Positions 262-60,611 of a stretch of DNA of 64,000 bases are shown here, in pieces. The position numbers were made by a program, and so were the translations under genes. Positions within the stretch are counted from its first letter, which is position 1. Every line of letters begins with the position of its first letter. A model generated the notes under the pieces. It searched no databases. It was not told the origin of the DNA and saw only the letters and a program-made list of their open reading frames with translations. The stretch lies in contig PMZR01000084.1 in NCBI GenBank assembly GCA_003170135.1, forward strand, positions 36,674 to 100,673, in the 5' to 3' direction. Source of the stretch: Acidobacteriota bacterium (GTDB lineage Bacteria; Acidobacteriota; Vicinamibacteria; Vicinamibacterales; Fen-181).

Positions 262-303
262 AGTCCGGAGTCCGGAGTCCGGGGTCCGGAGTTCGGAGTC
301 CGG
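262..303. repeat. Tandem heptanucleotide array, AGTCCGG x6 (minor variants)
   Basis: Direct reading: agtccgg agtccgg agtccgg ggtccgg agttcgg agtccgg. Begins 14 nt after the stop codon. Confidence 0.95.
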
Positions 304-372
304 AGGCAGACCGTTCACGGTTAGCGGGTTGACCGGTGACACTTCATCGCTGACCGCCTCTCGATAGCTGGT

Positions 373-396
373 GGAACAGGACTTCAGTCCTGCTCT
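373..396. repeat. REP-like hairpin (10-bp GC-rich stem, TTCA loop)
   Basis: ggaacaggac-ttca-gtcctgctcc (1 mismatch). Same core CAGGAC-TTCA-GTCCTG recurs at 8414-8433 and 50078-50099. Confidence 0.85.
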
Positions 397-663
397 CCGT
401 CTGCCCTCCATCATCGCGATCCGTATCACGCGACGCGCAGGCCGCTGTCATTCAGCCATCGAGCGTCAGGAGCACGGCCCATATGAACGGCAGGACCGCC
501 GCGATCTGTCTCGTCGTCGTGTGCGCGATTCTCGCGGGGCTGCTCCTCGAGAGTGCGATCTCACCAGTGGTAGCGGGGGGCGGGTTCGCGCTGGCCCTGG
601 CGGTTCTGGGCATCGTATCGGGCGGATTCAGGAAAGCGTGACGATTCGGCGCGATCTCGTACG

Positions 664-712
664 GCACTTCGCACTCGGCACTTCGCACCCCGCACCTCGC
701 ACTCCGCACTTC
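664..712. repeat. Tandem heptanucleotide array, GCACYYC x7 (complement of the GTGCGGG family)
   Basis: gcacttc gcactcg gcacttc gcacccc gcacctc gcactcc gcacttc. Ends 12 nt before the stop of the minus-strand chrA-like gene. Confidence 0.95.
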
Positions 713-723
713 TCCCGCAAGTA

Positions 724-1275
724 TCAGTAGACCGCCAGCCCCAGGATCGCGGCTCCCAGGATGATGAACACGGGATTGACCGACGTGAAGGTCAGCAACG
801 CGAACGTCGCGGCGGCGATGACGATGCCGTCGACGCCGCGTGAGAGGGCCGCGGCCCACCCGAGTTTGCGCGCGGCGAAGACCGAGTTCGCCATGTCGTA
901 GGCCGTCCAGAGCAGCAGGCCGATGACCACCGGGCGTACCGCCTTCAGCATGGCCTGCATCGGCCGGCTGTCCTTCACCGCGAAGAACGCCACGACCAGC
1001 ACGAGCATCAGCACGGTCGTCGGCAGCACGGTGCCGGCCGCCGCCGCGATGGCGCCCGGCACTCCCGCCAGCTTGTACCCGACGTAGGCGGACACCTGCG
1101 GAGCGATGGGGCCGGGCAGGGCGTTGCCCAGCGCCACCGCGTCCGCGAATTCGGCCGACGTCACCCAGCCCGCGCCCGTCGTCTCGCGCTGCATGAGGGC
1201 GAGCGAGGCGGGACCGCCGCCCCAGGAAAAGATGGCCACGCGCGTGAACAGGACGAAGATGTGCCAGAGCAGCAT
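724..1275 (-). CDS. Chromate transporter (ChrA) family membrane protein, half-size form
   Basis: 183 aa, hydrophobic. N-terminal FSWGGGPASLALMQRE and LGNALPGPIA resemble the CHR family signature. Confidence 0.7.
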   Translation of the reverse strand: MLLWHIFVLFTRVAIFSWGGGPASLALMQRETTGAGWVTSAEFADAVALGNALPGPIAPQVSAYVGYKLAGVPGAIAAAAGTVLPTTVLMLVLVVAFFAVKDSRPMQAMLKAVRPVVIGLLLWTAYDMANSVFAARKLGWAAALSRGVDGIVIAAATFALLTFTSVNPVFIILGAAILGLAVY

Positions 1276-3558: not shown

Positions 3559-4734
3559 ATGGCGGATGACAGCACCAAGACAAAGCTGCTCGACGATCTC
3601 GAACATGGGCCTTGGCCGAGTTTCGTCACTGAGATGAAGAAGGCCAGCGCCGCCAGCCCGGCGGTCAACGACCTGCTCGGGCAGCTGGAGCTGTCCTACG
3701 AGGAACGCAAGGGCCATTGGAAACACGGCGGCATCGTCGGCGTGCGGGGATACGGCGGCGGCGTCATCGGGCGCTACAGCGACGTGCCCGAGCAGTTTCC
3801 CAAGGTCGCGCACTTTCACACGATGCGCGTGAACCAGCCCGCGGGGTGGTTCTACACGAGCGACGCGCTGCGCACGCTTGCCGACATCTGGGAGCGTCAC
3901 GGCTCATCGCTGACCAACATGCACGGATCGACGGGCGACATCATCCTGCTCGGCACGCACAGTGAGCAACTCGAACCCACGTTCAAGGAACTGACCGAGG
4001 CCGGCTTCGACCTGGGCGGATCCGGCTCCGCCATGCGCACGCCGTCGGCCTGCGTCGGCCCGGCCCGCTGCGAGTGGGCCTGCTACGACACGCTCGCGGT
4101 CTGCTACAACCTGACGCTCGCCTACCAGGACGAGCTGCACCGCCCGGCGTTTCCCTACAAATTCAAGATCAAGTGCTCCGGCTGCCCGAACGACTGCGTC
4201 GCGTCGATTGCCCGGGCCGACCTGTCGATCATCGGCACCTGGAAAGACGACATCCGGCAGGACGACCAGGCGGTGGCCGACTACGCGCAGGGCGGCCTGA
4301 ACATCCAGAAGGAAGTCTGCGACCACTGCCCGACCAAGGCGATGGAGTGGGCGGGCGGCCGCCTGACGATCGCGAACCGCGAATGCGTGCGCTGCATGCA
4401 CTGCATCAACGTGATGCCGAAGTCGCTGCGGCCCGGCACCGAGACGGGCGCGACGATCCTCATCGGCGCCAAGGCGCCGATCGTCCAGGGCGCGCTGTTG
4501 TCGTCGGTGCTCGTGCCCTTCGTGCCGGCCGCGGAGCTCGAGGAGACGCTCAAGGAGCTGATTACCCGGCTGTGGGAATTCTGGGACGAGTCGGGCCGTC
4601 CGCGGGAACGGATCGGCGAGCTGATCCAGCGCGTCGGCCTGGCGACCTTCCTCGACGCGATCGGCCTCGACCCCGTGCCCGAGATGGTGTCGGCGCCCCG
4701 AGACAACCCGTACGTGTTCTTCAAGAACGAGTAG
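3559..4734 (+). CDS. dsrA: Dissimilatory sulfite reductase alpha subunit
   Basis: 391 aa. [10 protein letters not shown] and [11 protein letters not shown]-terminal motifs. Cys clusters [11 protein letters not shown] and CSGCPNDC. Ferredoxin-like CVRCMHC. dsrB follows after 12 nt. Confidence 0.93.
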
Positions 4735-4746
4735 AGGCGGCTCCAC

Positions 4747-5829
4747 ATGGCAGATCAACCGGTCAAGCGGATCACCGACATCGGTCCTCCGCACTATCAG
4801 AAGTTCCTGCCGCCGTCCGTGAAACGCAACTACGGGCAGTGGAAGTCGCACGAGAAGGTGGCGCCGGGCGTGCTGGTGCACGAGTCCGAATCGGGCGAGC
4901 GGCTCTACACCGTGCGCGCCGGGTCGCCCCGGCTGCTGGCCGTGCAGACGCTGCGGGCGTTCGCGGATCTCGCCGACAAGTACTGCGGCGGCTACCTGCG
5001 GTTCACGAGCCGGAACAACGTCGAATTCCTGCTCGAAGATCCGGCGAACATCGCGCCGCTGAAGGCGGACCTGGCGCAGATGGGGTTCCCCGTCGGCGGC
5101 ACCAACAACGCGATCAGCAACATCGTCCACACGCAGGGATGGATCCACTGCCACTCGGCGGCGACCGACGCGTCGGGCATCGTGAAAGGGCTGATGGATG
5201 CCCTCTACGAGCGCTTCACGCACGAAGATCTGCCCGCCAAGCTGCGGGTGGCGGTCGCCTGCTGCGTGAACATGTGCGGCGCGGTCCACTGCTCGGACAT
5301 CGCGATTCTCGGCATCCACACGCGGCCGCCCACCGTGAAGCACGACACGCTGGCCCGGACGTGCGAGCTGCCCACCGTCATCGCCTCGTGCCCGACCGGC
5401 GCGATTCGATCGGCCAGCGTCGAGGGCAAGCCGTCGGTGTCGGTCGTCGACGAGCAGTGCATGTACTGCGGCAACTGCTACACCGTGTGCCCGTCGATGC
5501 CGATGAACGACCCCGACCACGATGGCTGCTCGATCTGGGTGGGCGGCAAGGTGAGCAACGCGCGCAGCGCGCCGGCGTTCTCGAAGCTGGCGATCCCGTT
5601 TCTGGCGAACACGCCGCCGCGGTGGCCGGAGGTGGTGGACGCCGTCGTGAACATTGTGAACGTGTACGCGGCCAACGCGCGCCGGCACGAGCGCGTCGGT
5701 GAATGGATCGCGCGCATCGGGTGGCCGCGCTTCTTCGAGGTGACGGGCATCCCGTTCACGCGCCATCACATCGACGATTTCAAGCACGCGGGCCTGACCT
5801 ACGCGCGGTCTACGCACATCAGGTTCTGA
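4747..5829 (+). CDS. dsrB: Dissimilatory sulfite reductase beta subunit
   Basis: 360 aa. [32 protein letters not shown] and [12 protein letters not shown] motifs. Position directly after dsrA. Confidence 0.93.
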
Positions 5830-5875
5830 CGAAGGCACTATCCCGGGCTTCCTACCGGGACGCGGGGAGACGGAG

Positions 5876-6127
5876 ATGGCCATATCGACCGACGAAATCG
5901 CCGAAGCGATGTACCAGATGGTCGCCGAGTACCAGGGCAAGAAGAACCTGAAGCCGGCGGACCTGATCAAGGCGATGATCGCGCGCCACGGCGAAGCGAA
6001 CTGCAGCAAGACCGAGTGCAAGCAGGCGCTGCGCCTGCTCATCGACTCCGAGCGCTGCGTCTACAGTTACTTCGGCGAAAGTTACATCACGCTGCCGCAC
6101 AAGGAAGGCGCGGCGCCCGAGGAATGA
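5876..6127 (+). CDS. dsrD: DsrD-like small winged-helix protein
   Basis: 83 aa. Location directly after dsrB. KKNLKPADLIKAM...LIDSERCVYSYFGESYITL resembles the DsrD layout. Confidence 0.7.
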   Translation: MAISTDEIAEAMYQMVAEYQGKKNLKPADLIKAMIARHGEANCSKTECKQALRLLIDSERCVYSYFGESYITLPHKEGAAPEE

Positions 6128-6138
6128 GGCGCCAACAA

Positions 6139-6276
6139 GTGCGGGTGCGGGGTGCGGCGTGCGACGTGCGTAGTGCGCGGTGCGAAGTGCCGGGGGCCGG
6201 GTGCCGACCGCGCGCAAAACGCAGGACGTAGCACCTCGCACGTCGCACGTCGCACATCGCACATCGCATATCGCAG
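6139..6276. repeat. Inverted pair of heptanucleotide arrays (GTGCGNN x10, 19-nt spacer, NNTCGCA x7)
   Basis: gtgcggg gtgcggg gtgcggc gtgcgac gtgcgta gtgcgcg gtgcgaa gtgccgg ... then cctcgca cgtcgca cgtcgca catcgca catcgca tatcgca. The arms are reverse-complementary. Confidence 0.9.
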
Positions 6277-6282
6277 ATTCCC

Positions 6283-7566
6283 ATGGGTCTCTTCAAGGAC
6301 GTCAAAAAGCCGGTCATCCGGCAGTCGCCACGCGCCAACGCGGACATCAGCCCGCTGCGGCCGGCGTTCGTCGCGAGGCAGCCGCCCTGCAGCACACAGT
6401 GCGCGGCGGGTGCCGACGTGCGGGGCTGGCTGACCGTCATCGCGCAGGCGGAGGCCGGCGGGCGCTCGCCCCAGGAGGCGTACGAGGCGGCCTGGCGCAT
6501 CCTGGCCGATGCGAATCCCTTCCCGGCGACGCTCGGCCGCATCTGCCCCCACGCGTGCGAGCAGGGATGCCACCGGAACGGCAAGGACGGCGCGGTCGCG
6601 ATCAACGCCCTCGAACGATGGCTCGGCGACGTCGCGCTCGCGCGCGGGTTCGCGCTGCCCGACCGCGCGCCAACCGCCCACGCAGGCCAGATCGCCGTGG
6701 TCGGCTCGGGGCCGGCCGGCCTGTCCTGCGCCTACCAGCTGGCGCGGCGGGGCCACTGCGTGGATGTGTTCGAGGCGCGCGACGTGCCGGGCGGCCGCCT
6801 TCGCGACGCCACGCGCACCGGCCGCCTTGCCGATGGCATCGTCGATGCGGAAATACGACGCCTGCTGCAGTTCGCCATCGTGCTGCGATGCAGCAGCCCG
6901 GTGGCCGGCGATGGCGGTGGCCTCGAGGCGGACCACGACTTCGTTTTCGTCGCGACAGGCCGCGCGTCGCGGCTCGAAACCTCCGGCGCCGAATGCGGCT
7001 TTGTCATGACACAGCCGCGCGCGTTCGCCGGCGGCGACGCCGTTCGCCCGGGCCTCGTCTCCGCGGCGCTGTCGAGCGGACGACGGGCGGCGGAAGCCAT
7101 CGACGCGGCGATCAACGGAAGAAAGCTCGAAGACCGGCAGCCGCTGCCGCCCATCGGCGCCGACCGCGTGAAGTTCGCCTGGTACGCGGACGCCCCGCGC
7201 CGCGACTGGCCAATGACCACGGGCGCGGATCTGCTGCCGCGCGAATCGGCCGACTCCGGGACGGCCGGCCTTCAGGCCGGTGACGACCCGGACCGGTGCG
7301 GGCCGGAGCCCGGAGCCTGGAGCCGGGAGCCTGAGATCGCCGCCGAGGCAAAGCGCTGCCTGTCGTGCGGCCTGTGCATGGACTGTGAACGGTGCTGGAT
7401 GTATTGCACCAACAACTGCTTCGAGAAGCTCCCGAAACGCGCAGGCGCCGAGCAACACGCGGGCCCCGAGCGGAAGCTCGCTTCCTACAGCGTGAAACTG
7501 GAACTGTGCAACGGCTGTCGGAAGTGCGCGGACGAATGTCCGTGCGGATATATAGAGATGGTGTAG
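6283..7566 (+). CDS. dsrL: DsrL-like / GltD-family flavoprotein with C-terminal 2x[4Fe-4S] ferredoxin domain; apparently lacks the NAD(P)H-binding domain
   Basis: 427 aa. GltD-like N-terminal Cys region (CSTQC, RICPHACEQGC). FAD fold IAVVGSGPAGLSCAYQLARRG. AFAGGD motif. C-terminal CLSCGLCMDCERC and CNGCRKCADECP. No second GxGxxG/A Rossmann segment seen. Confidence 0.6.
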   Translation: MGLFKDVKKPVIRQSPRANADISPLRPAFVARQPPCSTQCAAGADVRGWLTVIAQAEAGGRSPQEAYEAAWRILADANPFPATLGRICPHACEQGCHRNGKDGAVAINALERWLGDVALARGFALPDRAPTAHAGQIAVVGSGPAGLSCAYQLARRGHCVDVFEARDVPGGRLRDATRTGRLADGIVDAEIRRLLQFAIVLRCSSPVAGDGGGLEADHDFVFVATGRASRLETSGAECGFVMTQPRAFAGGDAVRPGLVSAALSSGRRAAEAIDAAINGRKLEDRQPLPPIGADRVKFAWYADAPRRDWPMTTGADLLPRESADSGTAGLQAGDDPDRCGPEPGAWSREPEIAAEAKRCLSCGLCMDCERCWMYCTNNCFEKLPKRAGAEQHAGPERKLASYSVKLELCNGCRKCADECPCGYIEMV

Positions 7567-7567
7567 T

Positions 7568-7595
7568 CAGTGGATAGTGGGCAGTGGATAGTGTG
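7568..7595. repeat. Tandem heptanucleotide array, YAGTGGR x4
   Basis: cagtgga tagtggg cagtgga tagtgtg, starting 2 nt after the dsrL-like stop. Confidence 0.9.
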
Positions 7596-7612
7596 AGTAA
7601 GGAGAACGCTAC

Positions 7613-7930
7613 GTGGCAACGATTGAACTGAACGGCAAGTCGTACAACGTGGATGAGGACGGGTTTCTCGAGGACCCGGCGATCTGGAGCGACATGGTAG
7701 CGCGTGATTTCGCGGCGTGCGAGGGCATCAGCGAGCTCACCGAGGATCACTGGAAGGTCATCAACTACGTCCGCCACTACTACGTGGAATTCGGCATCGC
7801 ACCGATGGTCCGCAAGCTGTGCAAGGAAACCGGCTTCAAGCTGAACCAGATTTACGAGATGTTCCCGTCGGGTCCGGCGAAAGGCGCGTGCAAGCTGGCG
7901 GGCCTGCCCAAACCGACCGGGTGCGTCTGA
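7613..7930 (+). CDS. dsrC: DsrC (sulfur-carrier substrate of DsrAB/DsrK)
   Basis: 105 aa, GTG start with AAGGAG 8 nt upstream. VDEDGFLEDP motif. C-terminal arm GACKLAGLPKPTGCV carries both conserved Cys. Confidence 0.92.
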   Translation: MATIELNGKSYNVDEDGFLEDPAIWSDMVARDFAACEGISELTEDHWKVINYVRHYYVEFGIAPMVRKLCKETGFKLNQIYEMFPSGPAKGACKLAGLPKPTGCV

Positions 7931-7953
7931 CGAAGATACAGTCCCGGAGCACC

Positions 7954-8595
7954 ATGTCCGCCCATTGCCTTCACGAGATGCTCGCATCGCAGCGCGCGGC
8001 GCTCGTCGAGGAGTGGTTCGGGGCGACGTTGGCGTCCTATCCCGCCCACATGGCGCAGTTCCTCCGCCGCGAGGCGGACCGGTTCCGCAATCCGGCCGGT
8101 CACGCGCTGCGCGACAATCTGGGCATCGTCTTCGATGCGGTGATCCTGTCCGACGACTGGGATCGCGCGGCACGAGCGCTGGGCGACCTGCTGCAGCTGC
8201 GGGCCGTGCAGGATTTCACGCCATCGGAGGCGGTTGGCTTCATCGCGCCGCTCAGGGACATTCTGGGCCGGGCGATAACAGGATTGAAGTCCGGTTCGAC
8301 GGACCCGGCGATAACAGGACTAAAGTCCTGTTCCACAGGGCGGGAGTCCTGTTCCACGGCGCGCACGGCCCAGGGGTCTGTGGCGGCCGGTCCCTGGGTC
8401 CCTGGACCTGTGGCACAGGACTTCAGTCCTGTGCTCGCCGACGATCTCCGGGCACAGATCGACGCCCACGTCGATCGGCTGATCACACTCGCTTCCGAGA
8501 TGCACGCGAACTGTCGCCTGCGGATGGACGAGATCCGCGCCCGCGAAGCGACGCGGCGCACCTGGGTGATCGACCGCGTTCACCGGCGGGTCTGA
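7954..8595 (+). CDS. dsrT: DsrT (RsbRD N-terminal domain protein) carrying an in-frame block of repeat elements
   Basis: ATG 7954 within ORF 7717..8595. FRNPAGHALRDNL and RAVQDFTPSEAVGF motifs of the RsbRD_N/DsrT family. Position before dsrM. Nt 8275-8434 are repeat elements. Confidence 0.7.
   Translation: MSAHCLHEMLASQRAALVEEWFGATLASYPAHMAQFLRREADRFRNPAGHALRDNLGIVFDAVILSDDWDRAARALGDLLQLRAVQDFTPSEAVGFIAPLRDILGRAITGLKSGSTDPAITGLKSCSTGRESCSTARTAQGSVAAGPWVPGPVAQDFSPVLADDLRAQIDAHVDRLITLASEMHANCRLRMDEIRAREATRRTWVIDRVHRRV
8275..8434. repeat. Cluster of REP-like hairpins plus GGTCCCT heptamers, lying inside the dsrT reading frame
   Basis: aacaggat-tgaa-gtccggtt, aacaggac-taaa-gtcctgtt, gggagtcctgttcc, ggtccct-g-ggtccct, cacaggac-ttca-gtcctgtg (8414-8433). 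Confidence 0.85.
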
Positions 8596-8644
8596 AGACC
8601 CGCCCTACAGCAGAAGCGCGGGCCGTCAGGCCGGCGTCCACGAC

Positions 8645-9688
8645 ATGCACGCACTGCTCGCACTGCTCGCCGTCGTTGCGCTCGGCCTGGCCGCCTTCGC
8701 CGGCGCCCTGCGGCCGGAGCTGCGCCTGGCCATCGGCGTCGCATTGCCGTCGGTGTCGTTCTTCGTCTTCCTCGCCGGGACCGCGTGGCGCGTCGTCGGG
8801 TGGGCGAATTCGCCGGTGCCGTTCCGCATCCCGGTCACCTCCGGGCAGCAGGCGTCGTTTCGATGGTTGAAACCGAGTCGCCTGGATAATCCGTCGACGC
8901 TGGCTGGCGTGATGGGCCGGATGGCGCTCGAGGTGCTGCTCTTCCGATCGCTGTTCCGTAACGTGAAGTCGGATCTTCGGCCCGGACGCCTGATCTTCCG
9001 CGACGCCACCGGCTTGTGGCTGGCGGCGCTTGCGTTTCACTACTCGCTCCTGCTCGTCGTCGTGCGCCACCTGCGCTTTTTCATGCAACCGGTCCCCGGT
9101 GTCGTGGCCGCGCTCGCCGGTGTTGACGCGTTCTTCCAGGCCGGCGTCCCGGCGGTGTACGCGACCGACGTCGCCATGCTCGCCGCCCTGGGGTATCTCC
9201 TGTTCCGGCGGCTGCGTGAGCCGCACCTGCGCTACCTGTCGCTGTTCAGCGATTACTTCGCGCTGTTCGTGCTCCTTGGGATTGCGACCACGGGCGTGCT
9301 GATGCGCCATGTCATCCGGGTGGACGTCATCGCCGTCAAGGAGCTGGCGATGAGTCTGGTGACGCTCTCGTCGCCGCGCCTCGGCGCCTCGCTCCATCCG
9401 ATCGTGTTCGCGCACCTCGCGCTCGTCAGCGTGCTCGTCGCGAGCCTGCCGTTCAGCAAGTTGATGCACATGGGGGGCGTGTTCCTGTCGCCCACGCGGA
9501 ATCTCGCGAACAACAACCGGGCGAAACGCCACGTGAACCCATGGAACGCTCCCGTCAAGGTGCACACCTACGACGCGTGGGAGGACGAGTTCCGCGACAA
9601 GCTGATCGCGGCGGGGTTGCCAGTGGAGAGAAGCGGGCGTAGTCCGGCTGAAGCTGGATGCCACCAAGAGAGCGCGGACCATGTCTGA
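8645..9688 (+). CDS. dsrM: DsrM, NarI-like dihaem b membrane subunit
   Basis: 347 aa, multiple TM helices. PFSKLMHMGGVF motif of the NarI/DsrM family. Overlaps the dsrK start by 8 nt. Confidence 0.85.
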   Translation: MHALLALLAVVALGLAAFAGALRPELRLAIGVALPSVSFFVFLAGTAWRVVGWANSPVPFRIPVTSGQQASFRWLKPSRLDNPSTLAGVMGRMALEVLLFRSLFRNVKSDLRPGRLIFRDATGLWLAALAFHYSLLLVVVRHLRFFMQPVPGVVAALAGVDAFFQAGVPAVYATDVAMLAALGYLLFRRLREPHLRYLSLFSDYFALFVLLGIATTGVLMRHVIRVDVIAVKELAMSLVTLSSPRLGASLHPIVFAHLALVSVLVASLPFSKLMHMGGVFLSPTRNLANNNRAKRHVNPWNAPVKVHTYDAWEDEFRDKLIAAGLPVERSGRSPAEAGCHQESADHV

Positions 9689-11390
9689 CATCCCGCGCCC
9701 GCTCGATGGCAAGGACGCAACCTGCGCGATACCTGCTGACTTCCAGCGCCCCGCGCGCCCGTGGACCGATGCGCGCGTCGAGTTCCGCAAGGGCACCTTC
9801 TCCTACAGCGCCACCGCGAAGAATCTCCAGTCGCTCGGCCTGCCGAACCCGCGGGACTGGCAGCCGGCCGACGCCGACTGGAAGCTGCCCGCCGACTGGA
9901 AGCGGATCATCCTGAACGGCATGGCCGAACGGTTGCAGCGGCACCGCTCGTTCCGCCTCTTCATGGACGTGTGCGTGCGGTGCGGCGCGTGCGCCGACAA
10001 GTGCCACTTCTATCTCGGCTCGGGCGACCCGAAGAACATGCCGGTGCTGCGCGCCGAGCTGCTGCGCTCGGTCTACCGCCGGTACTTCACCATCGCCGGC
10101 CGCCTCTTCCCCGGTCTCGCCGGCGCGCGCGATCTGACCGAGGACGTCGTCAAGGAGTGGTTCTACTACTTCTATCAGTGCACCGAGTGTCGGCGCTGCG
10201 CCGTCTTCTGCCCGTACGGCATCGACACGGCCGAAGTGACGATGATCGGCCGCGAGCTGCTGAACCTGGTGGGCTGCAACATCAACTGGGTGCTGGATCC
10301 CGCGGCGAAGTGCGACCGCGTCGGCAACCACCTCGGCATCCCGCCGCACGCGTTCAAGGACAGCCTGGAGTTCGCGGTGGACGAACTCGAGGAGATCACC
10401 GGCATCCGCGTGGACGCGCCGATCAACCGGAAGGGCGCCGAGGTCCTGCTCGTCGTGCCGTCGGCGGATTATTTCGGGTCGCCGCACTACTACACGCTGC
10501 TCGGCTACCTGATGGTGCTGCACGAGGCCGGCCTCGACTACACCTTCAGCGCGTACGCGTCCGAGGGGGGGAACTTCGGGCTGTTCAGTTCGCACGAGAT
10601 GACGAAGCGGCTGAACGCGAAGATCTATGCCGAGGCGAAGCGACTCGGGGTGAAGTGGATTCTCGGCGGCGAGTGCGGCCACATGTGGCGCGTGGTCCAT
10701 CAGTACATGGACACGATGAACGGGCCCGCGGACTTCCTCGAGGTGCCCGTCTCGCCCGCCACCGGCACGCGCTTCACGCACGCGGCCTCGACCAAGACGC
10801 TCCACATCGCCGAGTTCACCGCGGACCTGATTCGGCACGGCCGGCTCACGCTCGCCAGGTCGCGCAACGACCGCTGGAACGTGACGTATCACGATTCCTG
10901 CAACCCGTCGCGCGCGATGGGCCTGCTCGAGGAGCCGCGCTACATCCTGCGCCACGCCTGCCACGAGTTCCACGAGATGCCGGAGAACACCATCCGCGAG
11001 CAGACGTTCTGCTGCGGCAGCGGCGCGGGCCTCGGCACCGACGAGAACCTCGAGATGCGGTTGCGCGGCGGGTTCCCGCGCGCCAGCGCGGTCAAGTACG
11101 TGCGCGACAAGCACGGCGTGAACTGCCTGGCCTGCATCTGCGCCATCGACAAGGCCACGCTGCCCACGCTGCTCGACTACTGGGTGCCCGGCGTCGAGGT
11201 GGCGGGCGTCCACGAACTGCTGGGCAATGCGCTCGTGATGCGCGGCGAGAAGCCGCGAACGACCGATTTGCGCGGCGAGCCGTTGCTCGCCGCCGCTCCG
11301 ACTCCGGACCTCGGGCTTCGGACTCCGGACTCCGGACCTCCGACTCCGGACTCCGGACGACGCGTCGGCGAAGGAGCCGGCGGGCCATGA
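9681..11390 (+). CDS. dsrK: DsrK, HdrD-like Fe-S/CCG-domain catalytic subunit
   Basis: 569 aa. CVRCGACADKCH and CTECRRCAVFCP clusters. CCG-type motifs (FCCGSGAG, HDSCNPSR). The last ~30 codons are read through a CTCCGGA heptamer array. Confidence 0.9.
   Translation: MSDIPRPLDGKDATCAIPADFQRPARPWTDARVEFRKGTFSYSATAKNLQSLGLPNPRDWQPADADWKLPADWKRIILNGMAERLQRHRSFRLFMDVCVRCGACADKCHFYLGSGDPKNMPVLRAELLRSVYRRYFTIAGRLFPGLAGARDLTEDVVKEWFYYFYQCTECRRCAVFCPYGIDTAEVTMIGRELLNLVGCNINWVLDPAAKCDRVGNHLGIPPHAFKDSLEFAVDELEEITGIRVDAPINRKGAEVLLVVPSADYFGSPHYYTLLGYLMVLHEAGLDYTFSAYASEGGNFGLFSSHEMTKRLNAKIYAEAKRLGVKWILGGECGHMWRVVHQYMDTMNGPADFLEVPVSPATGTRFTHAASTKTLHIAEFTADLIRHGRLTLARSRNDRWNVTYHDSCNPSRAMGLLEEPRYILRHACHEFHEMPENTIREQTFCCGSGAGLGTDENLEMRLRGGFPRASAVKYVRDKHGVNCLACICAIDKATLPTLLDYWVPGVEVAGVHELLGNALVMRGEKPRTTDLRGEPLLAAAPTPDLGLRTPDSGPPTPDSGRRVGEGAGGP
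11295..11357. repeat. Tandem heptanucleotide array, CTCCGGA x9, inside the dsrK 3' end
   Basis: gctccga ctccgga cctcggg cttcgga ctccgga ctccgga cctccga ctccgga ctccgga. Translated as APTPDLGLRTPDSGPPTPDSG. Confidence 0.95.
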
Positions 11391-50047: not shown

Positions 50048-50077
50048 TCGACCGAGAGTGGGAGCCATCGAGGACGC

Positions 50078-50150: not shown

Positions 50151-50156
50151 AAGACA

Positions 50157-50639
50157 ATGGGCAGAGACTTGGAACCAACGATTCGCGTGCTCGGCCTGGG
50201 CAACGACCTGCTCGCCGACGACGCCTTCGGGATGGAGATCGTGCGCGAGCTCGGCGCGCATCTGCCGCCCGGAGTCCAGACGGCATCGAGCATCGCGAGT
50301 GGCTTCGGGCTGCTCGACGACCTGCTCGACGCCGATCGGCTGATCGTCGTCGACACGATCTCGAGCGGGCAAGCGGCGCCAGGAACCGTGCACCGGTTCG
50401 AGGAAGGCGAGGTGACCGCCGCGGGCGGGACCTCACCGCACTATGTCGGCCTGTTCGAAACCCTGCGCCTGGGCCGGGCGCTCGGCCTCCACGTGCCCGG
50501 GTGCGTGGTGATCCTGGCCGTCGAAGCCGGCGATTGCCTGACGATCGGGGGCGCGATGGGCCGCGAAATGCGGGCGGCGATGCCGGTCGTGGTGCGGATG
50601 GTCGACGCGACGGTGGCGGGATGGATAGCTGGTCCCTAG
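50157..50639 (+). CDS. Hydrogenase maturation endopeptidase (HycI/FrhD/HoxW family)
   Basis: 160 aa. VLGLGNDLLADDAFG and DTISSG...PGTV motifs. Follows the large subunit. Confidence 0.8.
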   Translation: MGRDLEPTIRVLGLGNDLLADDAFGMEIVRELGAHLPPGVQTASSIASGFGLLDDLLDADRLIVVDTISSGQAAPGTVHRFEEGEVTAAGGTSPHYVGLFETLRLGRALGLHVPGCVVILAVEAGDCLTIGGAMGREMRAAMPVVVRMVDATVAGWIAGP

Positions 50640-50716
50640 TCCCTGGTCCCTGGTCCCTGGTCCCTGGTCCTTGGTCCCTGGTGCGTGGTGCGTGAGTGCG
50701 TCAGTGCGTGAGTGCG
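50631..50716. repeat. Tandem heptanucleotide array, GGTCCCT x7 grading into GGTGCGT/GAGTGCG x4-5
   Basis: Begins in the last two codons of the protease gene: ggtccct agtccct ggtccct ggtccct ggtccct ggtcctt ggtccct ggtgcgt ggtgcgt gagtgcg .... Confidence 0.95.
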
Positions 50717-51324: not shown

Positions 51325-52248
51325 ATGGCCTCTGCCGAAGACGTCACACCGAAGCGTTACCTCTACTTCCCCGGCTGTTCGCTGCGGGCGACGGGGATCG
51401 CCTACGCCGAGAGCGTCGTGGCCCTCTTCAAGCTGCTCGGCGTGCCACTCGAGGAACTGGCGGACTGGAACTGCTGCGGCGCCACTTCCTACATGGCCAT
51501 CGATGAGGCCTCGGCCTTCGTGCTCGCCGCGCGGAACCTGGCCATTGCCAAGAAATCGGGTGCGGCGGAACTGCTCGCCCCGTGCAGCGCGTGCTACCTG
51601 GTCCTGCGCAAGACGGTCGACTACACGACGAAATACCCCGAGGTGCGCGAGCAGGTCCAGCAGGCCATGGCGCGCGCGGGATTGCCGTTTCCCGACGGCG
51701 TGCGGGTCCGGCACCCGCTCGAGGTGTTGTTCAACGACATCGGCGAAGATCGGATCCGCGCCGCCGTGAAGCGACGCTGGAACGGCGGCCGCATCGCGTG
51801 CTACTACGGCTGCCAGGTGGTGCGGCCGTACGACGAGGTGGACACGCCGCACGATCCCGAGCGCATGGACGAACTGCTCGCCGCGGCCGGGATTCCGACG
51901 GTCGAGTACTCGTTGAAGACCAAGTGCTGCGGCGGGTCGCTGACCGGCACCATCACCGACGTCGGCAAGCGCCTCAATTACATCCTGCTGAAGGAAGCGA
52001 TGCGCAAGGGCGCGCAGGCCATCGTGACCATCTGCCCGTTGTGCCAGTTCAACCTCGACGCGTACCAGGTGGAGATCAGCAAGGAATCCGGCATCGACTT
52101 CGACATGCCGATCCTGCTGCTGCCGCAGCTGATTGGCTGGGCGCTCGGCGGGACGCGGAAGGAACTCGGCTTCCGCCGCATGATCTCGGGGCAGAAACTG
52201 CTGGATCAGTGGTTGACCGAACCCACGCGGGAAGAGGCCTATGTATAA
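51325..52248 (+). CDS. hdrB: Heterodisulfide reductase subunit B (two CCG domains)
   Basis: YFPGCSL, NCCGATS, YYGCQVVRP, KCCGGS and ICPLCQFN motifs. ATG 51325 with GGAGA 9 nt upstream. Confidence 0.88.
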   Translation: MASAEDVTPKRYLYFPGCSLRATGIAYAESVVALFKLLGVPLEELADWNCCGATSYMAIDEASAFVLAARNLAIAKKSGAAELLAPCSACYLVLRKTVDYTTKYPEVREQVQQAMARAGLPFPDGVRVRHPLEVLFNDIGEDRIRAAVKRRWNGGRIACYYGCQVVRPYDEVDTPHDPERMDELLAAAGIPTVEYSLKTKCCGGSLTGTITDVGKRLNYILLKEAMRKGAQAIVTICPLCQFNLDAYQVEISKESGIDFDMPILLLPQLIGWALGGTRKELGFRRMISGQKLLDQWLTEPTREEAYV

Positions 52249-52254
52249 CGAACA

Positions 52255-52289
52255 GGCGGATGGCGGGAGGCGGGAGGCGGATGGCGGGA
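52255..52289. repeat. Tandem heptanucleotide array, GGCGGRW x5
   Basis: ggcggat ggcggga ggcggga ggcggat ggcggga, between the hdrB stop and the conserved hdrA N-terminus. Confidence 0.9.
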
Positions 52290-52318
52290 GCCCTGAAGCG
52301 GCGACGCGCGAGGCCGAC

Positions 52319-54292
52319 GTGCGCATCGGCGTCTACGTCTGCCACTGCGGATCGAACATCGCCGGCGTCGTGGACGTGAAGGCCGTTGCCGAATACGCCG
52401 CGGCCCTGCCGCACGTGGTGGTCGCGCGCGATTACAAGTACATGTGTTCGGATCCCGGCCAGGAGCTGATCCAGCAGGACATCCGCGAGCTGCGGTTGAA
52501 CCGCGTCGTGGTCGCGTCCTGCTCGCCGCTGCTGCACGAGCACACCTTCCGCGTCGCGACCGAGAAGGGCGGCCTGAACCCGTTCTTCTTCCACCTGGTC
52601 AACATCCGCGAGCACGACTCGTGGGTGCACGAGAAGGGCGCGGCGGCCACGACGAAGGCGAAGGACCTGGTGCGCGCGGCCGTGCGCCGCGTCGTTTACC
52701 ATCGGGCGCTCGAGACCCGGCAGGTGCCGGTCCACCCGGACGTGCTCATCGTCGGCGGCGGCATCGCGGGCATTCACGCGGCGCTGACGATGGCGAATGC
52801 CGGGAAGAAGGTGTACCTGGTCGAGCGGCAGGCGACGATCGGCGGGTACATGGCCCGGTTCGACAAGACGTTTCCGACGCTCGACTGCGCGGCCTGCATC
52901 CTGACGCCGAAGATGTCGAGCGTGCGATCGCACCCGAACATCACGCTGTGGACCTACTCCGACGTGACGCAGGTCGAAGGCTACGTGGGCAACTACCGCG
53001 TCAAGGTGACGCGACATCCGCGTTACGTGCACGAGGACCTGTGCGTCGGCTGCCTCGAGTGCATCGACGCGTGCGTCTACAAGGACGCGCGGTATCCGGA
53101 CGAGTTCAACCTGGGCCTCGGCAAGCGCAAGCCCATCTACATCCCGTTCCCGCAGGCGACGCCGACGGTGGTCTTGATCGACCCGGACACCTGCATCGAC
53201 TTCAAGGCGGGCAAGTGCAAGAAGACGTGCGTCGAGGCGTGCGGCGACCGGCACGCCATCGACCTGAAGCAGCAGGAAGAGGTCCGGGAGATCCAGGTCG
53301 GGACCATCATCCTCTCCACCGGCTTCCAGCCGTTCGACGTGTCGAAGACGCCCTACTACGGCTACGGCACCTACCCGAACGTGTACACGTCGCTCGAGGT
53401 CGAGCGCCTCGTCAACGCCTCGGGGCCGACCGGAGGCGAAGTGAAACTGCGCGACGGCCACAAGCCGAAATCGATCGGCATCGTGCACTGCGTGGGCTCG
53501 CGCGACGTCACGACGAACCGGTGGTGCTCGCGCGTCTGCTGCATGTATTCGCTGAAACTCGCCCACCTGCTGCACGAGCGGACCGAGGCCGAGGTGTTCA
53601 ACTTCTACATCGACATGCGGACGCCCGGGAAAGGCTTCGAGGAGTTCTACCAGAAGCTGCTGAACGAAGGCGTGCACTTCATCCGGGGCCGCGTCGCGGA
53701 GGTGACCGACTGGGCGCTCGATCCGTCGGAGGAGCACAAGCTCGTCATCCGCGTCGAGGACACGCTGCTCGGCACCGTGCGCCGCATCCCGGTCGACATG
53801 GTGGTGTTGTCGGTGGGCCTCGAGCCGCACGCGGACGCCCAGGACGTGCGGCGGCTCTTCAACATCAGCTGTTCGACCGAGGGCTTCTTCCTCGAACGCC
53901 ACCCGAAGCTCGCGCCGGTCAGCACGTTCACCGACGGCATCTTCCTGGCGGGCTGCTGCCAGGGACCGAAGGACATCCCGGACACGGTGGCACAGGCGGG
54001 CGCCGCGGCGGCCGAGGCGATGGTGCTCATCGACCGCGGTCACGTGGACCTCGAGCCCAACACCGCCTGCGTGGACGAGAACGCGTGCTCGGGGTGCAAG
54101 ACGTGCGTGCCGATGTGCGCCTACAGCGCCATCACGTTCAAGGACGACGTCAAGCGCGCCTGGATCAACGAAGCGCTCTGCAAGGGCTGCGGCACCTGCG
54201 TCGCCGCGTGCCCGTCGGCGAGCATCCACCAGAACCTCTTCGAGGACGACGAGATCTTCAGCGAGATTGCAGGAATCCTGGAGAACGTCTGA
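52319..54292 (+). CDS. hdrA: Heterodisulfide reductase subunit A (FAD, multiple Fe-S)
   Basis: Conserved start region (V)RIGVYVCHCGSNIAG. VLIVGGGIAGIHAA FAD fold. CVGCLECIDAC, WCSRVCCMYS, CSGCKTCVPMC and CKGCGTCVAACP. Alternative ATG 52241 would translate the heptamer array. Confidence 0.88.
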   Translation: MRIGVYVCHCGSNIAGVVDVKAVAEYAAALPHVVVARDYKYMCSDPGQELIQQDIRELRLNRVVVASCSPLLHEHTFRVATEKGGLNPFFFHLVNIREHDSWVHEKGAAATTKAKDLVRAAVRRVVYHRALETRQVPVHPDVLIVGGGIAGIHAALTMANAGKKVYLVERQATIGGYMARFDKTFPTLDCAACILTPKMSSVRSHPNITLWTYSDVTQVEGYVGNYRVKVTRHPRYVHEDLCVGCLECIDACVYKDARYPDEFNLGLGKRKPIYIPFPQATPTVVLIDPDTCIDFKAGKCKKTCVEACGDRHAIDLKQQEEVREIQVGTIILSTGFQPFDVSKTPYYGYGTYPNVYTSLEVERLVNASGPTGGEVKLRDGHKPKSIGIVHCVGSRDVTTNRWCSRVCCMYSLKLAHLLHERTEAEVFNFYIDMRTPGKGFEEFYQKLLNEGVHFIRGRVAEVTDWALDPSEEHKLVIRVEDTLLGTVRRIPVDMVVLSVGLEPHADAQDVRRLFNISCSTEGFFLERHPKLAPVSTFTDGIFLAGCCQGPKDIPDTVAQAGAAAAEAMVLIDRGHVDLEPNTACVDENACSGCKTCVPMCAYSAITFKDDVKRAWINEALCKGCGTCVAACPSASIHQNLFEDDEIFSEIAGILENV

Positions 54293-54521
54293 GGCGTGCG
54301 GGTCGGCTGCGAGGCCGAGCTTGCGGCCGGCTTCGCAGCCGACCATCGCTCTCGGCCCACGCCCGCATCGCTCCGGCCTGTGCCCCGCCTGCCTCGGGCG
54401 GCCCGCATGTCCGGCCCGTTCCCGCCCGCCGCTGACCCTTCATGCCCGCCCGGGCTCCGTTTCACGATACAATGCGGTTCGGCTGCAAACTCGACAGTCC
54501 GACGGCAAGGGAGCGTGCGTT

Positions 54522-57140: not shown

Positions 57141-57249
57141 GGGTTCTAGTCAAATCAGGCCGTGTGCCTGAATCTTGGTGCTGGATGCTGGGTGCCATGT
57201 GCTGGGTGCATGGGCGCAACAGACTGCGCCCCTGCCAACCACAGGCCCG

Positions 57250-57540: not shown

Positions 57541-57550
57541 TCCTATCGGC

Positions 57551-59257
57551 TCATTTGACCAGCTTCTCGGCTGTCACGAATCGGGGCTCGATGTCCACGG
57601 GCACCGAGCCGAGACGGTCCAGCAGTTTCTGCACGTCCGGCCGGACGACGGCCAGCCGCCCGAGCATCTCTTTCGCTTTCGCGTAGTCGCCCTGCGCCTC
57701 GAGTGTGAGCAGTTCGCCGGTCAACGCCTGGACGCCCTGCTTGATCTTCGCCGGATCGATCGCGAACGTCCCGTCCTTCTGCGCGACGAACGATCCGTTG
57801 TCGGTCAGGTAGTTGAGCTGCATCGCGATGCCCTTGCCGTGCGCCTCGGTGACGCCGAACCGGATTGCGCGGAAGGCCGACGCGAGGAACGTGTCGTACA
57901 TCTGCGCTTCCATCGCCTTGTCGATGACGCCCTTGTCCACCAGGTACTGCAACGCGAAGAGGCCCGAAATGTCCGCTTTCGCCTCCTCGATCGCGCTGTA
58001 GGTTTCCTTCAGCTCCTGGCGCACGGTCGTCGCCCGCCCGGCCACGGTGATCTGGTGCGGCCCCAGCCCGTGCATGAGCTCATGCATCACCGTGTGGGTG
58101 AAGAATGCGTCGAAGGAGACCTTCGACTGGTCCGCCGGCGCGAGGACGACCTTCGAGATCGGTACGAGCGCAACCCTGAACTTTGCCTCCTGGACGTTCC
58201 TGAGCATGACGCGCTTGGCGCCCTTCTCCTTGACGATGCGCTCGTCGTTGGGAAGGTTGAAAGCGGCTGTCTGCACGCCGCGATTGCCGTCGCCCGCCGC
58301 CAGCAACTCGTTGACGACCGCAATGGGCGCCATGCCGCCCAGCTTCGGGTTCCGGAACTTCGGGTCGATCGGCAGGTGGTCCTCGATGTCCTGCAGGTGG
58401 CCGCCCAGTTTCGCCAGCTTGGCGCTCTCGGCTTCGTCGCGGATCGTGATGAACGCTTCGAACGCCGCCTTCGCATTGAACCACTCGTCTTCGTACACCT
58501 CGTAGGGCCCGATGGTCGGCTCGATCGACGCGTCCAGCTCCATCCACGCGACGTCGCTGTCGTAGTAGTCGTTGGAGAGGAACGCGTCGGCGCGCTTCGT
58601 CAGGAAGGTCTTCAGCGTCGGCTGCGACGTCAGGTTCGCCGCCTCGCGCAGCAACTCGGCGGCCCGCGCCAGTTCGCCCTGGTACTCGACGTTGTAGGGC
58701 ACGATCGTGAAACCGTTGCCCGCTCGTCGGATTGTCGTGAAGAAGCCGGTGGCGCGTGCGTGGTCCGCGGGGGAGAGCGTCTTCAGCCACGCTTCGACGT
58801 CGGCCTTGGTCGCGCCCGCCGGGTAGAAGTTCGCGGCCGCCGGCTTTTCCGGGACGCCGGGGATGAACGCGGTGTTGGCGTCGAGCCTGGACCACGGCCC
58901 CTTGTTGATCAGGAAGTGATGCACGCGCGCCTGGCCTTCCGCCGTGCGATCGGTCAACAGGCGCATGAGCACGGCTTGGTTGCCGCCCCACACCTGGCGC
59001 AGGAACAGCCCGTCCATCACCCAGCCGGCCTGGACGAGTTTCGCCAGCGCCTGCTGCTCGTTTGCGGGCAGGCCGGACAGATCGGCCGTGACGTCCACCG
59101 GCGCAAACCGGCCGATCATCGTCTGCAACTTCGTGAGTTCAGGGGACGGGGCCACGGCTGCCTCCTGCGGGCGTTGTTCCTCCGGGCGCGAACACGCCGC
59201 GAACATGCCAGCGACGATGACCACGACAACGGCGAGCAGGATGATTCGCTTCATCAT
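57551..59257 (-). CDS. Lipoprotein zinc metallopeptidase, DPP III (M49)-like family
   Basis: Lipobox ...VAGMFAAC. HELMHGLGPH and EEAKADISG metal-binding motifs. Family call is from memory. Confidence 0.55.
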   Translation of the reverse strand: MMKRIILLAVVVVIVAGMFAACSRPEEQRPQEAAVAPSPELTKLQTMIGRFAPVDVTADLSGLPANEQQALAKLVQAGWVMDGLFLRQVWGGNQAVLMRLLTDRTAEGQARVHHFLINKGPWSRLDANTAFIPGVPEKPAAANFYPAGATKADVEAWLKTLSPADHARATGFFTTIRRAGNGFTIVPYNVEYQGELARAAELLREAANLTSQPTLKTFLTKRADAFLSNDYYDSDVAWMELDASIEPTIGPYEVYEDEWFNAKAAFEAFITIRDEAESAKLAKLGGHLQDIEDHLPIDPKFRNPKLGGMAPIAVVNELLAAGDGNRGVQTAAFNLPNDERIVKEKGAKRVMLRNVQEAKFRVALVPISKVVLAPADQSKVSFDAFFTHTVMHELMHGLGPHQITVAGRATTVRQELKETYSAIEEAKADISGLFALQYLVDKGVIDKAMEAQMYDTFLASAFRAIRFGVTEAHGKGIAMQLNYLTDNGSFVAQKDGTFAIDPAKIKQGVQALTGELLTLEAQGDYAKAKEMLGRLAVVRPDVQKLLDRLGSVPVDIEPRFVTAEKLVK

Positions 59258-59420
59258 GGCAGACATTCCTTGAATGGCGGGGGCCCTATGCCCCGCGCCG
59301 CTGCGTCGCATGCTCACCCGCCACATTCCACATTCCACGCCCGATTCTACCGCGTGTCTGCGCGCGGCGCACCGCGTTGCAGGTCGACAAACGCGAGCGG
59401 ACCAGCCTAAGATTCCGGAC

Positions 59421-60488
59421 GTGATTCCGACACCGACCGCGTTACTGCGGGGCTCTCGCCGGTCCGCGTTGCGCGCGGCGATTGCCCTGGTTGTCGCCGC
59501 ATTGCTGGCCGTGCCCGGGTGCAGCCGGCCGCCACAGTCCGGCGTTGTAATTCGGGTCGGCTACTTTCCGAACATCACGCACTCGCAGGCCGTCATCGGC
59601 GTGGCCGACGGCACGTTCCAGCGCGCACTGGGCGACAACGTCGCCGTGCGGGCGCGCGTGTTCAACGCCGGACCCTTTGTCATCGAAGCGCTGTTCGCCG
59701 GGCAGATTGATCTGGCCTACGTCGGCCCGAACCCGGCAATCAACGGCTACGTGCGGTCGAACGGCCAGGCGCTGCGCATCGTCGCTGGTGCCACCAGCGG
59801 CGGCGCCGTGCTCGTCGTGCGCGCGGACGCCGCGATCCGGCAACCGGCAGATTTCCGTGGCCGGCGCATCGCGAGCCCGCAACTCGGGAACACGCAGGAT
59901 GTCGCGCTGCGGCGCTGGCTGAGCCATGAGGGCCTGGAGCTGCGCGAGCGCGGCGGCACGACAGAGGTGATCCCAGTCGCGAACCCCGACATTTTCACGC
60001 TGTTTCAGAAGAAGGAAATCGATGCGGCCTGGGTGCCCGAACCGTGGGGCGCGCGCCTGGTGCACGAGGCCGGCGGACGAGTGTTTCTCGACGAGCGCGC
60101 GCTGTGGCCGGAGGGACGGTTCGTCACGGCGCACGTCATCGTGCGCACGGCGTTCCTCGACCAACACCCGGATCTCATCAGCCGATGGCTCGACGCGCAC
60201 GTCGATCTCACCCGGCGACTCACGAGCGATGCCGAGGGCGCCAAGCGAGCCGTCAACGCGGAGATCGAGCATCTGACGGGCAGGGCGTTTGCTGCCGCCG
60301 TGCTGGATGACGCGTGGGCGCGCATGACGCCGACGTGGGATCCGATTCGCAAATCGCTGGCGCAATCGGCGGACGCCGCCTTCCGCCTGGGCTTTCTCGG
60401 AGACAACCCGCCGAAGCTGGACGGCATCTACGACCTGCGGCTCCTGAACCGCGTCTTGCGAGGTAAGGGACTGCCAGGGATAGACTGA
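59421..60488 (+). CDS. ABC transporter periplasmic substrate-binding protein, aliphatic sulfonate/nitrate/taurine (SsuA/NMT1) family
   Basis: GTG 59421 gives signal plus lipobox ...LLAVPGCS. IRVGYFPNITHSQ motif. The longer ORF from 59274 would overlap the divergent peptidase gene. Confidence 0.7.
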   Translation: MIPTPTALLRGSRRSALRAAIALVVAALLAVPGCSRPPQSGVVIRVGYFPNITHSQAVIGVADGTFQRALGDNVAVRARVFNAGPFVIEALFAGQIDLAYVGPNPAINGYVRSNGQALRIVAGATSGGAVLVVRADAAIRQPADFRGRRIASPQLGNTQDVALRRWLSHEGLELRERGGTTEVIPVANPDIFTLFQKKEIDAAWVPEPWGARLVHEAGGRVFLDERALWPEGRFVTAHVIVRTAFLDQHPDLISRWLDAHVDLTRRLTSDAEGAKRAVNAEIEHLTGRAFAAAVLDDAWARMTPTWDPIRKSLAQSADAAFRLGFLGDNPPKLDGIYDLRLLNRVLRGKGLPGID

Positions 60489-60500
60489 CGGGGGCGGGGA

Positions 60501-60611
60501 CAGTGGATAGTGGGCAGTGGGTCGTGGGTCGTGGGTAGTGGATAGTCGGGGGTAAGCGCACCAAGGACCAAGGACGAGGGACCAAGGACCAAGGACGAGG
60601 GACCAAGGACC
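60501..60611. repeat. Two abutting heptanucleotide arrays: YMGTGGR x7, then CCAAGGA/CGAGGGA x7
   Basis: cagtgga tagtggg cagtggg tcgtggg tcgtggg tagtgga tagtcgg ... ccaagga ccaagga cgaggga ccaagga ccaagga cgaggga ccaagga. Confidence 0.95.

Follow-up and report, generated by a model that had tools for sequence, protein, structure and literature searches.

Tandem heptanucleotide arrays beside stop codons in and around the dsr operon of a probable acidobacterium

The window analysed here, a 64-kb stretch of DNA with a GC content of 67% that corresponds to JGI contig Ga0334813_000112, contains a dsr operon and about 20 arrays of tandem 7-nt units (heptamers). These arrays persist almost exclusively in non-coding spacers just 3′ of a stop codon, or in dispensable termini and linkers of open reading frames (ORFs). 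The closest named relatives of the DsrB protein (76–78% identity) are encoded by metagenome-assembled genomes (MAGs) labelled Acidobacteriia, Vicinamibacterales, Acidobacteriaceae and Terracidiphilus. On this evidence the host, with 67% GC, is probably an acidobacterium or at least Acidobacteriota-like, and not a classical sulfur bacterium.

An earlier note on this DNA had claimed period-7 tandem arrays at a series of sites, each of which we found with Tandem Repeats Finder (TRF) or by direct reading, but the repeat at 8389 amounts to merely 2.1 copies of an 8-mer and lies inside an ORF. TRF reports 19 period-7 arrays of 2.6–11.9 copies each, and direct reading adds 44718–44770, which brings the total to about 20. 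A strict lag-identity scan recovers 11 arrays at period 7 and seven at period 14, while the remaining periods between 4 and 15 give none, and 20 dinucleotide-preserving shuffles of the window produced no array at period 7. The recurrence of a few unit families at distant sites is borne out: 17 consensus pairs among 19 units are at most one base apart versus about 4.6 expected (P ~0.0005, counted in the window only). One family can also grade into another within a single array, as direct reading shows at 11757–11849 (TAGTGGG to TAGTGGA to TAGTTGA to CCGTTGA) and at 50629–50716 (GGTCCCT to GGTGCGT). Six further assemblies with other sample accessions are 100% identical across the region, arrays included, and a seventh differs at one base; because the same sequence recurs in seven further assemblies, an assembly artefact, which the earlier note had raised as a refutation, is excluded. 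Over this region, these seven loci (L001–L007, from JGI and ENA, with different sample accessions) are 99.99–100% identical to the window, which suggests either repeated sampling of a single clonal population or that related samples were re-assembled.

Gene order and the identity of each junction were taken from Pfam and from the gene calls of the source. The dsr operon (3559–15450) runs in the order dsrABD-L-C-(RsbRD_N-domain gene)-MKJOPN, with both dsrD and dsrL present. Hausmann and colleagues reportedly described in 2018 the dsr gene set of Acidobacteria, which the set found here, with dsrD and dsrL, matches. The genes are dsrA (3559–4734), dsrB (4747–5829), dsrD (5876–6127), a short dsrL-like gene (6283–7566; product of 427 amino acids), dsrC (7613–7930), the RsbRD_N-domain gene (7954–8595), dsrM (8645–9688), dsrK (9681–11390), dsrJ (11387–11761), dsrO (11917–12699), dsrP (12832–13998) and dsrN (14041–15450).

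Eight arrays, all on the plus strand, lie in this operon. Past dsrD, 9.6 copies of a GTGCGGG-type unit (6139–6204) begin 11 nt after the stop codon and form the 5′ arm of a long hairpin, the 3′ arm of which is a complement-type array (GCACRTC, 6.4 copies, 6231–6275) that ends 7 nt before the dsrL ATG. Within the dsrL-like ORF, 4.1 copies of CCGGAGC (7303–7333) fall between Pfam-matched domains, and 3.7 copies of YAGTGGR (7568–7593) start 1 nt past its stop and end 19 nt before dsrC. The 3′ end of dsrK contains 9.1 copies of CTCCGGA with a 28-nt higher-order unit (11296–11358). At the end of dsrJ, eight TAGTGGR units give way to five of TAGTTGA/CCGTTGA (11757–11849), and the first TAG is the dsrJ stop codon itself (11759–11761). 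Nine units that shift from CAGTTCA through CCGTTAA to CCGTTGA (12709–12773) begin 9 nt past the dsrO stop, and 3.1 copies of CTTCGGA (14016–14037) lie 17 nt past the dsrP stop and 3 nt ahead of the dsrN ATG.

Other arrays accompany the neighbouring genes. Upstream of the operon, a multihaem cytochrome gene ends at 248, and 6.3 copies of AGTCCGG (262–305, plus strand) follow 13 nt past its stop; a chromate transporter gene (724–1275, minus strand), after which come porin and sirohaem-type methylase genes, is followed 11 nt past its stop by seven copies of RRAGTGC as read on the minus strand, with a 14-nt higher-order unit (664–712). Beyond dsrN lie sulfur-related transporters, cytochromes, an HdrD-like gene, an IS481-family transposase and two-component regulators, and after these hypAB, a NiFe hydrogenase with hycI, hdrCBA-like genes and an ABC transporter. 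In this part of the window, 7.3 copies of GTGCSGG (39051–39101, plus strand) start 1 nt past the stop of the HdrD/DsrK-like gene, and 2.9 copies of the same unit (40479–40498, plus strand), with degenerate units from about 40452, end 18 nt before a response-regulator gene. Between them lies the IS481-family element (approximately 39102–40455, plus strand; transposase at 39176–40384), which has a 13-nt perfect inverted repeat (39137–39149 and 40423–40435) and GTGCSGG units on both sides; from the sequence it appears to have inserted into a GTGCSGG array and to have left these two remnants. A mixture of GGTCCRA and CCGTTSA units in direct and inverted order (44718–44873, minus strand; 44852 is the TRF start within it) fills the gap from the stop of a macro-domain gene to the next minus-strand gene.

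In the hydrogenase and hdr region, 7.7 copies of GGTCCCT and then 4.6 of GTGCGTGA (50629–50716, plus strand) include the hycI stop (TAG, 50637–50639) in their second unit and end 2 nt upstream of the hdrC-like ATG at 50719, and 5.3 copies of GGCGGGA/GGCGGAT (52254–52301, plus strand) begin 5 nt past the hdrB stop. Farther on, 5.3 copies of GGTGCTG (57177–57214, plus strand) sit in a convergent gap of 673 nt, with the stop on each side about 300 nt away, and a marginal array of 2.6 CCACATT copies (59321–59338, no strand assigned) lies in a divergent gap or in the N terminus of an M49 peptidase ORF. Finally, 6.4 copies of YAGTGGR (60502–60546, plus strand) start 13 nt past the stop of a substrate-binding-protein (SBP) gene, and 7.6 copies of ACCAAGG with a perfect 21-nt higher-order unit (60560–60612, plus strand), which contain the Shine–Dalgarno (SD)-like AAGGA, end 4 nt before the ABC-ATPase ATG.

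Arrays cover 765 of 8,279 non-coding nucleotides (9.2%) versus 208 of 55,721 coding nucleotides (0.37%), a density about 25 times higher in non-coding DNA. The earlier note's placement of array starts on or near stop codons agrees with starts at −10 to +17 nt from the stop, which is itself part of the array in two cases (those of dsrJ and hycI), and the junctions it named (dsrD–dsrL, dsrL–dsrC, dsrJ–dsrO, dsrO–dsrP, dsrP–dsrN, hycI–hdrC, hdrB–hdrA and SBP–ABC-ATPase) are those that Pfam and the gene calls give. Gaps inside operons do hold arrays, as had been claimed, but it was too much to say that most intergenic gaps do: just 13 of the 41 gaps of at least 25 nt contain one (10 of the 30 co-directional gaps, two of the four convergent ones and one of the seven divergent ones, the last with a weak array of 2.6 copies). 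None occurs between 14,040 and 39,050, a 25-kb stretch with about 17 gaps that is flanked on both sides by array-dense DNA; GC in this stretch is slightly lower (0.63–0.67).

The arrays inside annotated ORFs (7303, 11296 and 52254) occupy dispensable termini or a linker, and are multiples of 21 nt or fall within terminal tails. That at 11296, in the dsrK segment 10881–11390, encodes most of a 33-residue, Pro/Asp/Ser/Gly-rich DsrK tail beyond the conserved …DLRGEPL end; the tail has 20 residues in a close relative (L134), where a CCGGACA array encodes it, and is missing from more distant DsrK homologues. The 52254 array yields ‘ADGGRRE’ repeats at the annotated N terminus of HdrA (52241–52325), which HdrA homologues at 86–91% identity lack. 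The true HdrA start may be a GTG at about 52322, preceded by GAGG, instead of the annotated one.

Comparison with related loci shows that the arrays lengthen, shorten and drift where they stand, in steps of whole 7-nt units. A relative that is about 97% identical in DNA across window positions 44.4–56.6 kb (L133) has a hycI–hdrC array (50629) that is 37 nt shorter, without about three GGTCCCT and two GTGCGTGA units, and eight regular units at hdrB–hdrA (52254) versus 5.3 partly decayed ones in the window. Slippage-driven variation, one of the possibilities that the earlier note had floated, thus has support in these whole-unit differences; a comparison of array copy numbers, which it had proposed between strains or long reads, gave no differences among seven assemblies of the same strain and whole-unit differences against L133. 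Units of one array differ more the farther apart they lie, by 1.20 mismatches at lag 1 and by 1.8–1.9 at lags 5 and 7, and TRF finds higher-order units of 14, 21 and 28 nt; local duplication followed by mutation yields both patterns.

At 89% DsrB identity, two relatives (L008 and L134) are also rich in arrays, some of which lie at the same junctions (after the cytochrome stop, the chromate-transporter stop and dsrC) and in the DsrK tail. Their units mostly differ from those of the window (AGGGATC, GGCTCAA, GCCATAA and CCGGACA), GTCCGGA being the sole family in common. Four relatives at 77–83% DsrB identity (L009, L130, L132 and, from a Vicinamibacterales MAG, L131) have zero to two weak arrays per 16–21 kb; in place of the window's spacers of 130–155 nt, they have dsr genes that directly adjoin or overlap one another. 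Because arrays are abundant in the 89% relatives and almost missing from those at 77–83%, the comparison of these sequences indicates lineage-specific expansions with fast turnover. In the relative at 83% (L009), two short arrays of one family (AGGGCTC and its complement, at 11090–11115 and 11468–11493) flank dsrD in inverted orientation, a potential long-range stem.

To assess structure, gaps were folded as sense RNA and scored against shuffled sequences. Four gaps are strongly structured: 249–330, through TCCGGA palindromes of the self-folding 262 array (z = −4.2); 6133–6282, where the G-rich array pairs with the complement-type array (−89.2 kcal/mol, z = −5.5); 12700–12831, through GTTAAC palindromes that form a hairpin (z = −4.7); and 44718–44860 on the minus strand, through direct and inverted units (z = −4.3). 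Roughly half of the arrays lack structure (z of −0.8 or above), among them the TAGTGGR, GGTCCCT and ACCAAGG arrays and those of GTGCGGG alone. RNA structure, which the earlier note had listed among the possible functions, would thus apply to some arrays only, and a structure common to all of them was rejected. In the scan for intrinsic terminators, a single weak minus-strand candidate overlaps one end of the 6231 array and no candidate coincides with another array, and the promoter scan gave a single promoter-like match, at 12706–12734 inside the 12709 array, which is no more than expected by chance. Neither a match to Rfam 15 families at the gathering score nor a tRNA or transfer-messenger RNA gene was found in the window.

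The mRNA-sense strand directly past a stop codon is usually G-rich and C-poor. In the window, 8 of the 11 arrays in that position have a G-rich sense strand (skew +0.3 to +0.8). We looked at the same property more widely with a scan for TAGTGGR (3.5 units, one genome per species; at least 120 loci) and a scan of metagenomes for RGTCCGG (four units; at least 120 matches), which were run without control heptamers and speak to wide occurrence, not to enrichment in any lineage. Among the matches listed, TAGTGGR arrays occur in Planctomycetota, Caldilineaceae and other Chloroflexota, Acidobacteriota (including Vicinamibacterales), Cyanobacteria, Bacteroidota, Verrucomicrobiota, Thiotrichaceae, Chromatiaceae, Myxococcota and the candidate phyla radiation, the last including the small-genome Uhrbacteria and Nealsonbacteria. 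Period 7 dominates all tandem repeats at these listed loci. Within 40 nt past the stop of a long ORF, the G-rich strand is the sense strand by 42 to 7 for TAGTGGR and by 49 to 9 for other heptamers at the same loci, and independent cross-phylum units contain 11% C on the sense strand. The RGTCCGG matches listed are mostly on high-GC contigs, and for this near-palindromic unit the orientation bias is weak (24 to 13). The independent sense-oriented units listed also show a strong depletion of the dinucleotide TA (z = −3.6). We tried a universal ‘xGTxxxx’ unit grammar, as window units mostly share GT in one register, like those of STRR1–3, but it was ruled out by units of close relatives that lack GT (AGGGATC and GGCTCAA) and by the lack of GT enrichment across 24 independent cross-phylum units (z = −0.7).

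Several described repeat systems resemble these arrays. The STRR1–3 repeats of cyanobacteria, with the units CCCCAGT, TTGGTCA and CAACAGT that Mazel and colleagues are said to have reported in 1990 (cited in PMC4692102), likewise fall into several heptamer families within one genome, scattered over its non-coding DNA. Their host is a heterocystous cyanobacterium, unlike the Acidobacteriota-like, 67%-GC host of the window, and two tandem copies of any STRR1–3 unit, in any rotation, are found on neither strand of the window, which places the arrays outside STRR in the strict sense. The earlier note was right in kind to compare the arrays with STRR but not in calling it the only comparable system, since heptamers are also described from Xanthomonas, Nostoc, Beggiatoaceae, Thiocystis and Geobacter.

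According to summaries of Mrazek (2007) in PMC4679880 and PMC4692102, heptanucleotides are the most abundant long simple-sequence repeats (LSSRs) in many genomes, especially large, high-GC ones, and are enriched in non-pathogens; the proposals summarised there are a slippage origin and a period possibly tied to the length of DNA held by the polymerase. Dominance of period 7 is common to that survey and the window, although the survey predates MAGs. The GGGAATC repeats of Xanthomonas (host of about 65% GC) and the GGGGA(C/T)T repeats of Nostoc comprise 2–26 tandem 7-mers, are about 90% intergenic, lie on average 28 nt from the stop of the upstream ORF, between co-oriented ORFs and rarely between divergent ones, and also occur inside operons (pecE–pecF); their G-rich strand is the coding one where they follow a stop and the non-coding one where they precede a start, inverted pairs able to form stem-loops are frequent, and at a given junction close species differ in the length and sequence of the repeats (Rehm et al. 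2015, PMC4692102). Rehm et al. concluded that the function of these repeats is unknown (PMC4692102). The window arrays match them in proximity to stops, strand rule, depletion from divergent gaps, inverted pairs, presence in operons and variation. They differ in having several unrelated families, with a G-quadruplex motif in 3 of 20 arrays, where Xanthomonas and Nostoc have one family of G-quadruplex type, and no tandem unit of the published GGGAATC or GGGGAYT type occurs in the window. Density is about 0.3 arrays per kb for all families in the window versus about 0.04 per kb for GGGAATC (calculated from 186 reported arrays and a genome size of about 5 Mb).

TAACTGA repeats are known from sulfur-oxidizing marine Beggiatoaceae and Thiocystis, and from Cyanobacteria and Bacteroidetes (MacGregor 2015, PMC4679880). 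They too are intergenic tandem heptamers scattered across phyla that include sulfur-metabolizing bacteria, and the 12709 array holds CAGTTAA and TAGTTAA, one mismatch from the TAACTGA complement. That class is defined by forward orientation a few nucleotides upstream of starts, whereas the window arrays mostly follow stops and are longer; tandem TAACTGA is not found in the window, and the arrays fall outside this class. Geobacter metallireducens has 49 elements of four tandem heptanucleotide repeats each, with the consensus GGACCGG (PMC2700814). The window contains none of the units published for these systems. No earlier report of heptanucleotide repeats in Acidobacteria was found in the literature searched. 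Period, placement, recurrent families and variation between relatives are all those of the heptanucleotide LSSR/STRR-like class, and the window arrays belong to this already described class, in a lineage for which we found no previous report.

We consider it fairly probable (about 0.7) that these are heptamer arrays of the same class as those already known, generated by replication slippage and surviving only in transcribed spacers 3′ of genes. Arrays would arise by slippage or by unequal recombination, and a period of 7 may be favoured by the replication machinery, as Mrazek proposed. Purifying selection would then clear them from coding cores and promoter regions, and C-rich orientations may be removed from untranslated mRNA, possibly as Rho-loading sites. 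The likely consequences would be side effects, with no dedicated regulatory system: spacers between cistrons would lengthen, some arrays would add SD-like motifs and others disordered peptide tails, and palindromic units or opposed adjacent arrays would give very stable stem-loops that could protect or process mRNA segments as REP elements do.

Several observations weigh against this explanation. Pure slippage explains neither the recurrence of a few unit families at distant loci nor adjacency to stop codons in place of a position anywhere in a long gap (such as 249–723), and both features could also reflect a sequence-specific binding factor or a copying process. Array copy number is constant across the seven assemblies of this strain; over short timescales, then, the arrays are not hypermutable. 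The polymerase account of the 7-nt period would apply here by analogy, as it is taken from the literature. The Rho account of orientation loses force from the arrays at the ends of operons (262, 664 and 57177), which share the G-rich sense bias.

Alternatively, the arrays could be functional post-transcriptional cis-elements: an RNA-binding protein (S1, a cold-shock protein or one like CsrA) would read each family in a register of 7 nt, and in the dsr, hdr/hyd and transporter operons this would determine how much each cistron is translated, or how stable it is, relative to the others. Binders of these kinds have been proposed for TAACTGA repeats, and for Nostoc there are reporter data that hint at a regulatory influence of its heptamer repeats (bioRxiv 10.1101/2022.06.06.494920). 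Such a role would suit the use of few families at many loci, the anchoring to stop and start codons with a sense-strand bias, the retention of arrays at the same junctions in the 89% relatives, the SD-like motifs in the arrays at 60560 (ACCAAGG) and 52254 (GGCGGGA), and the four start-proximal arrays (6231, 11296, 14016 and 60560), which contain neither ATG, GTG or TTG nor stop triplets. We nevertheless regard it as unlikely: at those same junctions the unit sequences of the 89% relatives are completely different, relatives at 77–83% have the same operon without arrays, copy number differs at about 97% identity, the families have no common structure or motif, and no described system has an identified binding protein.

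A broader version, in which heptamer arrays form a widespread, unrecognized layer of bacterial 3′-untranslated-region and intercistronic biology, strikes us as quite improbable, as does its specific proposal that a trans-acting factor reads, or a process copies, 7-nt registers and thereby tunes cistron stoichiometry, for example along dsrABD–L–C..J–O–P–N. Occurrence in many phyla, anchoring to stops, a C-poor sense strand and few homogeneous families would fit it, and the sharing of families among dispersed loci together with stop anchoring leaves some room for a trans-acting factor.

Formation of G-quadruplexes, as proposed for GGGAATC and GGGGAYT, would make the arrays regulatory repeats of another kind. 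Three of them (39051, 50629 on the minus strand, and 60502) hold three of the window's four canonical motifs (four runs of G3+ separated by N1–7), and arrays past stops are G-rich on the sense strand. As a common property the G-quadruplex was rejected, since 17 of 20 arrays have no canonical motif and the AGTCCGG, CCGTTGA, GCACATC, ACCAAGG and CTTCGGA families cannot form one; with 3 of 20 the arrays do not belong to the GGGNATC-type class, and we consider this explanation very unlikely.

REP and BIME elements of Enterobacteria are imperfect palindromes of 20–40 nt that are mobilized by RAYT transposases and lie after stops in operons or at their ends, where their stable stem-loops can protect upstream mRNA. 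The window arrays resemble them in forming hairpins after stops, very stable ones in four gaps, and an IS481 element lies within one array; there are also two non-heptamer hairpin insertions past stops relative to L133. However, the units are direct, head-to-tail 7-mers in variable number, about half of the arrays are unstructured, arrays of one family have no common flanks, terminal inverted repeats or target duplications, and no RAYT-type gene was seen among the genes of the window. Spread by a transposase as REP-, BIME- or MITE-like mobile palindromes is thus highly improbable, and the arrays lie outside that class. The two insertions are extra segments at 50048–50173 and 54303–54423, each just past a stop codon, and may themselves be small mobile or REP-like elements: the first (126 nt, from the hydrogenase large subunit gene to hycI, which overlap in L133) contains two perfect stem-loops and an 18-nt direct repeat, and the second is a GC-rich insert of 121 nt downstream of hdrA.

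Assembly artefacts or phase-variation (contingency) loci are an extremely remote prospect even though short tandem repeats are prone to mis-assembly and unit number differs between close relatives, because the sequence is the same in seven assemblies of different sample accessions and the arrays follow the stops of core energy-metabolism genes, not surface-structure genes, instead of lying in promoters or 5′ coding regions, which also sets them apart from the contingency class.

The arrays alone reveal no new mechanism. They extend a long-known repeat class to dsr-carrying, Acidobacteriota-like bacteria, and the scans add many phyla known mostly from MAGs; the cross-phylum rule of a G-rich, C-poor sense strand past stops is a testable clue to the constraint on these repeats. 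In practice, rapid turnover makes the arrays usable as strain markers, their presence inflates operon spacers, and the array-encoded DsrK and HdrA tails can mislead gene calling and protein alignment. Two more arrays lie 5 kb upstream of the window in one of the near-identical assemblies (L001, 2070–2096, GTCCGGA, and 2216–2253, GGCTCCA), where they straddle an overlapping-gene junction at 2199, one in the 3′ end of an ORF and the other in the 5′ end of the next.

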